From contig OZ252288.1 of assembly GCA_965250065.1 (NCBI GenBank), forward strand, positions 578,693-642,692: a stretch of 64,000 bases of DNA. Reading direction: 5' to 3'. Under the pieces are notes generated by a model, which saw nothing but the letters and a program-made list of their open reading frames with translations, made no database searches and had not been told where the DNA came from. Positions 27,235 to 28,931 of this stretch are shown here, one piece after another. Positions within the stretch are counted from its first letter, which is position 1. Each line of letters starts with the position of its first letter. The stretch is from Opitutales bacterium (GTDB lineage Bacteria > Verrucomicrobiota > Verrucomicrobiia > Opitutales > UBA2995). Made by a program: the position numbers and the translations under genes.

Positions 27235-28524
27235 ATGAAACCCAGATTCAACCGATGCGGTTACCACACGATAGGACGCCGCCAATTTCTGCGTGCCGCT
27301 GGCGCGCTGATCGCTTTACCCACTTTGGAGAGCCTTGCCTCCCCGTTTGCCAAGGCGACAGCCTCCACTGGTCCTCGCAACTTGGTTTCTATAGGCACTT
27401 ACCTGGGCTGGCACCAAAACGCATTTTTTCCTAAAGAGGTAGGTAAAGGTTATCAACTTCTACCCATTCTCGAACCACTCGCCAAGCACCAGGACGACTT
27501 CACCGTTTTCTCCGGTCTCGACCATCGGGCGCCCAACGGGCACGGGGCCTGGAGCAACTTTCTTTGCGGAAACATCCCCAAAACCTATTCCCTGGACCAA
27601 ATAGTGGCCGACCAGATCGGGCAGAAGTCGCGTTTCCCATCTGTGCAGCTTACTGCAGGCACCGGCGGGGGCAGCAAGGCCATGTGTTTTACCAAGCAAG
27701 GTATTGGCCTTCCCATGATCCAACGTCCGAGTGTGTTCTACAAGCAGCTTTTTATGTCGGAGGCTGACAAAGCTCGCATGGAACACATGCTTCGCAGCGG
27801 AAAAAGTTCACTCGACCTGGTATTGAAGGACGCACTGCGTTTGCAAAAATCGCTACCCGAAAGGGATAGCGATAAGTTGGAAGAGTATTTTGTTTCCATG
27901 CGCTCAGTGGAAAAACGCATGTCCCATCAAATTGCCTCCATCAACGAGCCACTTCCGACGACGGATTACAAACTTCCGGAAACCGATCCGCTAACCCCCA
28001 ACCTCCTGATGGAGGCGGAAACCCTCATGTACGACCTGATGGCTCTGGCCCTTGAAACCGATTCGAGCCGCGTGCTTTCCCTCTTCATCGACGGCCGCCT
28101 GGGACAGGTTTTCTCCATTGACGGTAAGGTTCTCAAGAGCGGCTATCATGGGCTGTCTCACCACGGCAATGACCCTGAAATGATCAGGGACTTGATCGCC
28201 ATCGAAAGGACACACATGCATTGCTTCAACGGTTTTCTCCATCAGCTTAAGGCAAAGAAAAATGCCTATGGAAAATCCCTCTTGGATGATACCATTGTTC
28301 TGGTGGGAACGGGAATGGGTAACGCCAGTCGTCACTCCAACGACAACCTGCCAACCCTGGTGGCGGGAGGAGGTTTCAAGCATGGAAGCCACATCGCCAT
28401 TGATGCATCCAAACCCGATGCACCACTCCTCGGCGACCTGTATGTTACTTTGATGCAAAGACTGGGTGTGGAGACCGATTCCTTCTCCAACGCATCCCGG
28501 AATTTGAATCACCTGTTTTCCTGA
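27235..28524 (+). CDS. DUF1552-family protein with twin-arginine signal (complete paralog of 1-749)
   Basis: 429-aa ORF with GRRQFLRAAGALIALP. Its C-terminal 250 aa are nearly identical to the protein encoded at 1-749. Confidence 0.88.
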   Translation: MKPRFNRCGYHTIGRRQFLRAAGALIALPTLESLASPFAKATASTGPRNLVSIGTYLGWHQNAFFPKEVGKGYQLLPILEPLAKHQDDFTVFSGLDHRAPNGHGAWSNFLCGNIPKTYSLDQIVADQIGQKSRFPSVQLTAGTGGGSKAMCFTKQGIGLPMIQRPSVFYKQLFMSEADKARMEHMLRSGKSSLDLVLKDALRLQKSLPERDSDKLEEYFVSMRSVEKRMSHQIASINEPLPTTDYKLPETDPLTPNLLMEAETLMYDLMALALETDSSRVLSLFIDGRLGQVFSIDGKVLKSGYHGLSHHGNDPEMIRDLIAIERTHMHCFNGFLHQLKAKKNAYGKSLLDDTIVLVGTGMGNASRHSNDNLPTLVAGGGFKHGSHIAIDASKPDAPLLGDLYVTLMQRLGVETDSFSNASRNLNHLFS

Positions 28525-28931
28525 TGGGAAATAAGAACACGTTTGTTCTACTGTTCCTTTGCACGGCAGTTGCAAAACTGCACGCCTGGCAGAAGGCCGC
28601 TTTTCCGGATGGCGATTACCAAAGAGCCTACTCACCCACCGGACCCGGCAACAACGGTTCCCTTCGCGGAAAGAATGGCCCAAAGTGAACGCCCCAATCG
28701 ATTCCACCGGGGTCCTTCCGGATGGCACGCACATTAATGACATCACCGATTTCAAAGCCTGGCTGGTCGACAACATCGATATGTTCTCTCAATGTCTTGC
28801 CGAAAAGCTCATTATCTACGCAACCGGCCGAGCCATTCAAAATGAAGGACAGGTATTACCAAGTGCCGACCAAGCCGGGTCTGGGCGTCCACTTGGATGA
28901 GGGTGCAGTGGACAGGTACCGGCGCGGCTGA
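28524..28931 (+). pseudogene. Chimeric remnant: deleted DUF1592 paralog fused to the 3' end of an enolase-superfamily gene
   Basis: Matching segments:
- 28524-28585 matches 749-810.
- 28586-28617 matches 1768-1799.
- 28675-28828 matches 3088-3240.
- 28826-28931 matches 22246-22351.

The reading frame from the ATG terminates at about 28686. Confidence 0.8.

Follow-up and report, generated by a model that had tools for sequence, protein, structure and literature searches.

Why does one of the DUF1552 genes of a marine Opitutales bacterium stand without the partner gene that is expected directly downstream of it? To answer this question, we analyzed a stretch of 64,000 nucleotides (nt) from contig OZ252288.1 (assembly GCA_965250065.1, positions 578,693 to 642,692 of the forward strand), hereafter referred to as the window. 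The gene in question is the second copy of a duplicated DUF1552 (HXXSHH) gene, and the place of its ~2.6-kb PSCyt3-type partner is taken by about 400 nt of patchwork sequence (28524–28931), which we call the relic. Judged by its homologies, the relic is a pseudogene remnant of the expected partner, and it very probably arose by in-place, microhomology-mediated, stepwise decay of a redundant second DUF1552-PSCyt3 pair.

The relic consists of four collinear pieces of two genes

PSCyt3 genes usually adjoin a gene of an unknown family, and the function of PSCyt3 is itself unknown (He et al. 2017, PMC5615132). The window holds three typical DUF1552-PSCyt3 pairs, namely copy 1 (6–3367), 3997–7940, and 22452–26751. 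Copies 1 and 2 are duplicates of each other (1–810 matches 27773–28585 with 90.9% identity, copy 1 being cut by the window start), and as DUF1552-PSCyt3/PSD pairs they differ in the second gene, which is present in copy 1 and reduced to a remnant in copy 2. All 36 metagenome loci in which the downstream DNA reaches far enough have a full-length partner directly 3' of the DUF1552 homologue, and none of them shows a patchwork. The DUF1552 protein of copy 2 aligns over its full length (residues 1–429) to metagenome homologues, the closest of which is 82% identical in amino acids (aa). The metagenome scan returned neither a strain-level relative nor an intact copy-2 partner, and a search for the exact protein in public assemblies gave no record. 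The divergence between the two DUF1552 copies over 248 codons is mostly synonymous, with a synonymous divergence (dS) of 0.24 and a ratio of nonsynonymous to synonymous divergence (dN/dS) of 0.19. By this measure selection acted on copy 2 over the greater part of its past, though not necessarily today; every relative examined has lost it. As a separate observation, the PSCyt3 protein of the conserved pair (22452–25394, reverse strand, 980 aa) contains an inserted Golvesin_C domain (PF25275, residues 593–726) that is missing from both remaining partners of the window.

We compared 28400–29100 with the window by blastn and by ungapped displays. Specifically, 28400–28585 matches 625–810 (90.3%, E 5e-70), covering the DUF1552 3' end and the first 62 nt of the partner; 28585–28617 matches 1767–1799 (87.9%, E 6e-6); 28663–28830 matches 3076–3243 over 168 nt (91.1%, E 5e-64); and 28826–28933 matches 22246–22353 (85.2%, E 2e-30), the end of an enolase-superfamily gene including its stop codon. 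All four pieces lie on the forward strand and in ascending parental order. A sequence-only reading of this DNA had described the same four-piece patchwork of two genes and had taken it for the pseudogene remnant of the ~2.6-kb partner behind a duplicated DUF1552 gene; both descriptions are confirmed by these alignments. Its 62 nt for piece 1 and its inclusion of the enolase stop also stand, whereas piece 2 measures 97 nt rather than 32, and the match of piece 3 extends over 168 nt rather than 154.

The larger size of piece 2 became visible outside the window. The piece is contiguous in the partner homologue of locus L021 (5108–5204, 88.7%, E 5e-29), and its translation WQKAAFPDGDY...LRGKNG is collinear with residues W341–G364 of copy 1. 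At this position the loop of copy 1 is shorter and differs in sequence, and the DNA match of copy 1 is limited to 28585–28617; the 45 nt previously left unplaced (28618–28662) are part of piece 2. Pieces 1 and 3 are likewise matched in the related locus L002, where 28445–28585 corresponds to 2450–2310 (92.9%) and 28663–28830 to 1409–1240 (95.3%).

Taken in order, the pieces lie in frames 0, 0, 2, and 0, with a stop codon at 28686–28688. About 310 of the partner's 2,619 nt survive, and no Pfam domain is complete. A neutrally changing remnant would show no excess of substitutions at third codon positions; the mismatches by codon position, too few to judge this, number 3/4/8 for piece 3 against copy 1, 1/2/5 for piece 3 against L002, and 4/3/9 for piece 4. 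Piece 4 ends 5 nt short of the stop codon of a convergent sodium:solute symporter (SSF) gene.

The junctions are present in the reads

The read evidence comes from Logan unitigs (de Bruijn contigs, k=31) of four runs of one sample. In each of the four runs, a single unbranched unitig spans all three junctions between the pieces with 0 differences and 0 gaps. The extents of these unitigs range from 28485–28949 to 28485–30500, reaching into the SSF gene, and they break only at 28480–28514, where about 35 nt are identical between copies 1 and 2. Over the four runs, the relic unitig has depths of 17, 22.2, 5.5, and 3.1, which follow those of the copy-2 DUF1552 body (19.5, 22.1, 5.9, and 3.7) instead of those of copy 1 (27.6, 21.2, 11.9, and 11.9). 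These data, which supply the read-level check that the sequence-only reading had called for, confirm that the junctions are real and not an assembly artefact.

The three junctions carry short microhomologies

Four pieces imply three junctions, and these carry exact microhomologies of 3, 4, and 4 nt, respectively. The undeleted copy-2 parent is not at hand, and the junction parents are therefore surrogates, namely L002, L021, and the enolase gene of the window. At junction 1, with a slash marking the joint, L002 reads ...CTGCACGC/GACAAG and L021 reads ...GGCCGC/CTGGCAG, while the relic reads ...CTGCACGC/CTGGCAG. At junction 2, which shifts the frame and leads to the stop at 28686–28688, the parents are CGCGGAAAGAATGGC/TGGGAG in L021 and GGCGGGAAGTGTGGC/CCAAAGTG in L002. 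At junction 3, L002 reads CCGGACGAG/TTCCC, the enolase ATGGCCGAG/TCATTC, and the relic CCGGCCGAG/CCATTC.

Among 200,000 random junction pairs drawn from this window, a microhomology of at least 3 nt arose by chance with a frequency of 0.054, one of at least 4 nt with 0.017, and one of at least 8 nt with 1.7e-4. All three junctions fall within 310 bp. The suggestion that the pieces were joined by microhomology-mediated deletion is supported, with 3–4 nt at each junction. The CACGC string proposed for junction 1 would need an additional 11-nt deletion, and one event at CGC explains this junction more simply.

The same locus is found at other stages in related genomes

SSF orthologues at 92% aa identity occur in seven loci of marine Opitutales metagenome-assembled genomes (L001–L006 and L046, with L005 and L006 on one contig), and an eighth related locus, L007, has an SSF gene at 87% aa identity. 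Three kinds of allele found among them bear on the origin of the relic.

The first is an orthologous relic in L002 (region 1124–3645), which, as in the window, has the DUF1552_447 gene and the remnant of an IS3-type insertion sequence (IS) next to it. It consists of the last 25 codons of DUF1552 followed by partner aa 1–106 fused to aa 559–871, and the partner part is an open reading frame (ORF) of about 420 codons that lacks aa 107–558, i.e. it carries an in-frame internal deletion. Over pieces 1 and 3 the L002 DNA is closer to the relic (92.9% and 95.3%) than the window's own copy 1 is (only 89–91%). Residues ~341–372 are kept in the window and gone in L002, while most of what the window has lost is kept in L002. 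This complementary retention indicates that the common ancestral allele was far more complete than either, most simply full-length, and a full-length partner would accordingly once have stood at copy 2. The L002-type allele also occurs in four runs from other samples, and none of these four carries the junctions of the window. Two further features of L002 were observed: the IS-bearing intergenic segment (window 26777–27170) is inverted in combination with a deletion, and 228 nt derived from a divergent SSF paralogue (59% aa) are present in L002 and missing from the window, with 3-nt and 6-nt overlaps at the corresponding window junctions.

The second and third alleles are deletions that remove copy 2 and most of the relic. 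L003 and L004 are without window positions 26843–28914 (2,072 nt), with 26842 joined to 28907 at AGTGGACA, an 8-nt direct repeat (8/8) that occurs exactly twice in window 26700–29000; as a result, DUF1552_447 lies about 125 nt after the SSF gene. L006 is without 26823–28847 (2,025 nt), with 26822 joined to 28838 between the imperfect repeats CAAAATAATG and CAAAATGAAG (8/10). Since both repeat copies survive in the window and the two junctions differ, these alleles represent two independent deletions from a window-like allele, not an insertion in the window. The AGTGGACA flanks had prompted us to consider an insertion with target-site duplication, which we rejected because the L006 junction differs and because the insert would need to complete the enolase 3' end exactly. 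Nor does the stretch behave as a mobile element: the empty sites differ (26842/28907 versus 26822/28838), and the sole trace of a transposase is the internal IS3 remnant. In the window's own sample, the L003-type deletion junction (28907) was also seen once, in an 84-nt contig of run X3 with a depth of 2.

The enolase tail, piece 4 of the relic, is shared as well. Beside the SSF stop, 99 nt of it remain in L006 (11824–11726, 84.8%) and 30 nt in L003/L004 (93%), and L001 has a 53-nt match (75%) that travels with its copy of the surrounding block (see below) and does not lie beside the SSF stop. Because the tail is present in L006, L003/L004, and L001, it is older than the window lineage and did not arise as a recent copy of 22246–22351; these comparisons mark it as old local DNA. 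Its identity is 85% to the window's enolase, 85% to the L006 remnant, and 79% and 76% to the enolases of L002 and L003, although 75–85% identity over ~100 nt (the tails measure 106 nt) is too short a basis for a resolved tree. The orientation of the neighbors varies, the enolase and SSF genes being divergent in L010 and L018, and co-directional genes following SSF in L001, L002, and L046. Separately, the L003 orthologue of the enolase gene is cut to its last ~87 codons beside PSD980 (L003 16210–16478).

Together, the relatives bear out the idea that the locus records the decay of a module, as they show the same locus at other stages. The comparison with related strains, proposed as a search for the intact second copy, yielded the relic and deletion alleles and no intact second-copy partner.

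Table 1 Coordinates of the relic, its junctions, and related features in the window
Feature	Position	Strand	Description
Piece 1	28524..28585	+	Partner codons 1–21, signal-peptide-like N-terminus MGNKNTFVLLFLCTAVAKLHA
Piece 2	28583..28679	+	97 nt; corresponds to copy-1 residues W341–G364; in frame with piece 1
Piece 3	28680..28832	+	Partner residues ~782–832 (DUF1588 end, DUF1585 start); frame differs from pieces 1–2
Piece 4 (enolase tail)	28833..28931	+	Last ~33 codons and TGA of an enolase-superfamily gene
Residual ORF, 54 codons	28524..28688	+	Signal peptide plus 33 aa; start overlaps DUF1552 stop (ATGA)
Junction 1	28583..28585	+	~957 nt apparently deleted, in frame; microhomology CGC (surrogates L002, L021)
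Junction 2	28676..28679	+	~1.25 kb apparently deleted; microhomology TGGC inside an 11/15 imperfect match
Junction 3	28825..28833	+	Partner residue ~832 joined to enolase tail; microhomology CGAG(T), 7/8 over GGnCGAGT
DUF1552 (HXXSHH) copy 2	27235..28524	+	Pfam PF07586, E 3e-60; intact 429-aa ORF, orphan
Partner copy 1	749..3367	+	872 aa; PSCyt1/DUF1587/1595/1592/1588/1585 (Pfam)
Enolase-superfamily gene, intact	21149..22351	+	Pfam MR_MLE_C; 3' end 85% identical to piece 4
Sodium:solute symporter gene	28937..30661	-	Pfam SSF; convergent on the relic
AGTGGACA, left copy of 8-nt direct repeat (8/8)	26835..26842	+	L003/L004 deletion
AGTGGACA, right copy of repeat	28907..28914	+	L003/L004 deletion
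CAAAATAATG, left partner of imperfect repeat (8/10)	26813..26822	+	L006 deletion
CAAAATGAAG, right partner of imperfect repeat	28838..28847	+	L006 deletion
Low-divergence block	22367..28832		PSD980, DUF1552_447, IS remnant, DUF1552 copy 2, relic pieces 1–3; ~6.5 kb
IS3-type 5'-end remnant	26855..27009	+	OrfA N-terminus MPRKRYRAEFKKEAAALM... (translation); between two divergent DUF1552 genes

Proposed stepwise decay of the second pair in place

We infer the deletion mechanism, the order of the events, and their number from sequence comparison. In the proposed course of events, a once-complete second DUF1552-PSCyt3/PSD pair would have stood in divergent orientation beside the DUF1552_447-PSD980 pair, and its partner gene would have been shortened in place through losses between direct repeats of very few nucleotides, caused by slippage during replication or by some other illegitimate joining that does not depend on RecA. 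Junction 1 would have removed about 957 nt and left the frame open; junction 2 would have removed about 1.25 kb more and introduced the frameshift, with a stop nine bases later; and junction 3 would have removed the last 124 nt of the partner together with all DNA between it and the last ~100 nt of the adjacent enolase-type sequence. The orphaned DUF1552 copy 2 is probably next to be lost. By our own arithmetic, three randomly inserted templated pieces would show the observed order and orientation with a probability of 1/48, which favors deletion, and a single insertion in the window lineage is excluded by the two different empty sites of L003/L004 and L006.

Several points weigh against this course of events. 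No intermediate alleles with only one or two of junctions 1–3 were found, and stepwise decay is therefore inseparable from a single event. An intact copy-2 partner at the locus is absent from the loci of GTDB species genomes and from the metagenome contigs examined. Over piece 3, the L002 relic is nearly equally close to copy 1 (158/168) and copy 2 (160/168), and its orthology rests mainly on position and flanks. In 78 genome loci, no intact enolase gene is convergent on an SSF orthologue. The read evidence consists entirely of unitigs from a single sample. Finally, the relic lies inside an apparently exchanged block, described next, so that the term ancestral refers to the history of this block and not necessarily to the species tree.

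A block of low divergence ends at the relic

The relic occupies the right end of a block of low divergence. Relative to L001, L002, L003, and L006, this block is 93–96% identical between species (91–99% in most 150-nt windows), versus 73–94%, mostly 75–90%, in the flanks, and its edges are sharp. Identity rises from 69–87% to 95–99% at about 22367–22500 and falls to 73–94% (mostly 80–90%) at the relic/SSF side, where pieces 1–3 lie on the high-identity side (92–96% versus L002) and the tail on the low side; in this profile junction 3 coincides with the right edge of the block. Against the same four loci, dS is 0.06–0.13 for DUF1552_447 and PSD980 and 0.60–0.92 for the SSF and MR_MLE (31247–32410) genes, i.e. 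6–10 times lower in the block than in its neighbors, while dN/dS is 0.22–0.43 in the block and 0.06–0.13 in the adjacent SSF and MR_MLE genes. The location of the block also varies, as L001, L002, L006, and the window each have it at another site. In L001 (1–8700), it lies between the orthologues of window genes 35581–38898 and 34031–35425; in L006 (16150–19500), between a second SSF copy and the orthologue of 35581–38898; and in L002 (1–8600), between the complete DHDPS-MR_MLE-SSF operon and a duplicate of DHDPS/MR_MLE that is truncated. All these observations suggest that the block was recently exchanged between species.

The IS3 remnant inside the block is broken by a 37-nt insertion (26924–26960) and truncated after about 46 codons; it matches Pfam HTH_Tnp_1 with E 4e-14 in its L002 version and 0.002 in its window version. 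In runs X5, X7, and X9, three of the four runs from other samples, the depth over this stretch is roughly 25–30 times that of its surroundings, and the IS is therefore multi-copy in related populations.

The apparent exchange opens another way of reading junction 3, which we regard as unlikely. In this alternative, a foreign block of about 6.5 kb was inserted into a convergent enolase/SSF arrangement by one-sided, homology-facilitated insertion, with one end anchored in the enolase gene and the other joined illegitimately at GGnCGAG; the 3' end of the recipient enolase would be the present tail, and junctions 1 and 2 would have formed later. In its favor, the block is bracketed in the window by two direct enolase 3' ends (22246–22351 and 28826–28931), the 15% difference between these ends is what separate donor and recipient copies would have shown all along, the contrast in identity and dS separates the block from the enolase, the tail, and SSF alike with junction 3 as its right edge, and the context of the block differs among L001, L002, and L006. 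However, the required pre-insertion arrangement, an enolase convergent on SSF, is kept by no relative, the two genes being divergent in L010 and L018. The left edge moreover varies among relatives, lying at 22367, at 22468, or running into the enolase, so that the edges may mark later recombination rather than the original insertion, and the 106-nt tails are too short for a tree. Put more broadly, it is possible, though we would not favor it, that the relic is the edge of a double DUF1552/PSCyt3 block recently moved between Opitutales species, with junction 3 as the acquisition joint; if true, the patchwork would record the capture of a block by a homology anchor and microhomology, followed by the discarding of its redundant half. 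The reading of junctions 1 and 2 as deletions is the same in either case.

Template switching, function, recombination, and assembly as alternatives

Stepwise decay in place also has to be weighed against a single replication-based template-switching event (fork stalling and template switching or microhomology-mediated break-induced replication, FoSTeS/MMBIR-like) that produced all three junctions at once. The crowding of three short-microhomology junctions into 310 bp would fit such an event, as would the L002 allele, which is itself complex in combining an inverted segment (window 26777–27170) with a deletion. The pieces of the relic, however, keep strict collinearity, no template among them being inverted or out of place, and simple direct-repeat deletions recur at this locus in relatives, which makes template switching rather improbable.

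Another reading holds that the remnant is retained for a function, either as an exported peptide of 54 codons or because its tail provides the SSF mRNA with a 3' end or terminator. Both the ATGA overlap and the N-terminus resembling a signal peptide are indeed preserved, and 30–99 nt of the tail survive beside the SSF stop in L003/L004 and L006 despite the deletion of the rest. On the other side, none of the relatives examined has the 54-codon ORF, and promoter-like and terminator-like sites in 26700–29100 do not exceed the shuffled expectation. A search of Rfam gave no match in the relic region at E<=1 and none in the whole window at the gathering score, a tRNA scan found none, and a look for RNA runs identified none. 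There is thus no evidence from the sequence that the 54-codon ORF is functional, the relic itself probably has no function of its own, and we hold its retention for a function to be very unlikely.

The sequence-only reading had further proposed that the relic was assembled from genes present in the window and records recombination with loci that lie about 6 kb and 26 kb from it. Such recent ectopic recombination or gene conversion from the 749–3367 partner and the 21149–22351 enolase of the same genome would account for the fact that the best in-window matches of all four pieces are those two genes, and the tail is nearer to the window's enolase (85%) than to those of L002 and L003, a difference that is seemingly not meaningful on ~100 nt. 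Nevertheless, the identity of the pieces to these genes is just 85–91%, 64 nt of piece 2 are missing from the copy-1 DNA, and the L002 relic is nearer to the pieces than the supposed donor. In L006 and L003/L004, moreover, the orthologous site already contains the tail. No closer donor for the pieces was found among the contigs of the sample at >=80% likeness, where, apart from copy 1 and the known enolase, the search recovered nothing but short matches to further enolase paralogues. The claim of recombination between these loci is therefore not supported, copy 1 is a paralogue and not a donor, and recent ectopic exchange appears highly improbable.

Least of all do we credit an assembly chimera at repeats common to both module copies, a risk that the ~35 nt of identity at 28480–28514 would create, because the junctions lie within one unbranched k=31 unitig per run in four runs with microhomologies of at most 4 nt, far below k, because the unitig depth tracks the copy-2 body and not copy 1, and because L002 independently joins a copy-2-type DUF1552 tail to a partner start.

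Other repeats and gene clusters of the window

Outside the relic and the block, the window contains a repeated element of about 180 nt that resembles a miniature inverted-repeat transposable element (MITE), with terminal inverted repeats of about 27 nt (TAACCCGCATGTCTCACAAAATT...AATTTGTGAGACATGCGGGTTA). Its full copies are intergenic (15374–15552, 31007–31185, and 63147–63326; mutual identity 86–88%), one of them lying between the MR_MLE and SSF genes, and partial copies are found at 58150–58187, 8451–8720, and 33443–33531, as well as in L003 (2341–2548) and L006 (958–1137). Dispersed repeats of another kind occur in large gene-poor stretches (39154–41331, 42751–42844, 48273–48864, 49185–49404, 50211–50630, 55485–55700, and 57726–58075) and also at 8040–8249. 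Among these, 39611–40017 matches 50211–50617 with 97.5% identity and 8040–8249 matches 49404–49195 in inverted orientation with 96%; the dispersed repeats match no tRNA or Rfam family.

Two clusters of the sugar-acid type adjoin the region. The first (15550–22351) comprises an SSF paralogue, GH2, an alpha/beta hydrolase, and the enolase gene, and the second (28937–33336) comprises a DHDPS-family aldolase, the MR_MLE dehydratase, and the SSF gene. Orthologues of the SSF gene with 63–67% identity are found in the fucoidan-degrading Flavobacteriia Tamlana fucoidanivorans and Mariniflexile fucanivorans.

Comparison with known systems

For annotation, 28524–28931 is to be marked as a pseudogene remnant, and the ORFs 28524–28688 and 28559–28900 are not genes. 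Compared with the PSCyt3-DUF1552 pairs of Planctomycetes and Verrucomicrobia, where the pair is very common, copy 2 keeps its DUF1552 gene intact while the PSCyt3 member is reduced to ~310 nt; the orphaned DUF1552 gene offers a natural test of whether the protein works without its own PSCyt3 partner, a question that bears on what the pair does.

Homology-facilitated illegitimate recombination has reportedly been described for natural transformation, in work of 2002 attributed to de Vries and Wackernagel. As in such insertions, the block would have homology on one side and a 3–10-nt microhomology joint on the other, and the process would leave a direct repeat of the gene end on the anchor side. 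The case here differs in being circumstantial, as it is built on the identity profile and the enolase 3' ends with no pre-insertion state found. The 6.5-kb block, which looks recently exchanged, is a more interesting lead than the relic.

The loss of DNA between short direct repeats, whether through slippage or through illegitimate recombination that does not need RecA, is said to be known from the lacI deletions of Albertini et al. in 1982 and from work of Bzymek and Lovett in 2001. As in those systems, one copy of a 3–10-nt direct repeat is left at each junction, and in the case of L003/L004 and L006 the window, as the undeleted allele, still shows the two repeat copies. The present case differs in that the mechanism is read from sequence only, junctions 1–3 being compared with surrogate homologues.

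The erosion of bacterial pseudogenes under deletional bias has reportedly been documented in Rickettsia and Mycobacterium leprae, by Andersson and Andersson and by Mira, Ochman, and Moran in 2001. The relic resembles these cases in that a redundant gene is reduced to short collinear fragments and related genomes differ in the stage and the end points of deletion. It differs in its host, a free-living marine Opitutales bacterium with a large genome that is not reduced, and in being one copy of a duplicated module within a block apparently exchanged between species. Taken together, the relic is best read as an ordinary case of a redundant gene copy being eroded by deletions, and a well-documented one, with several sister species caught at different stages and two deletions for which both repeat copies can still be seen.

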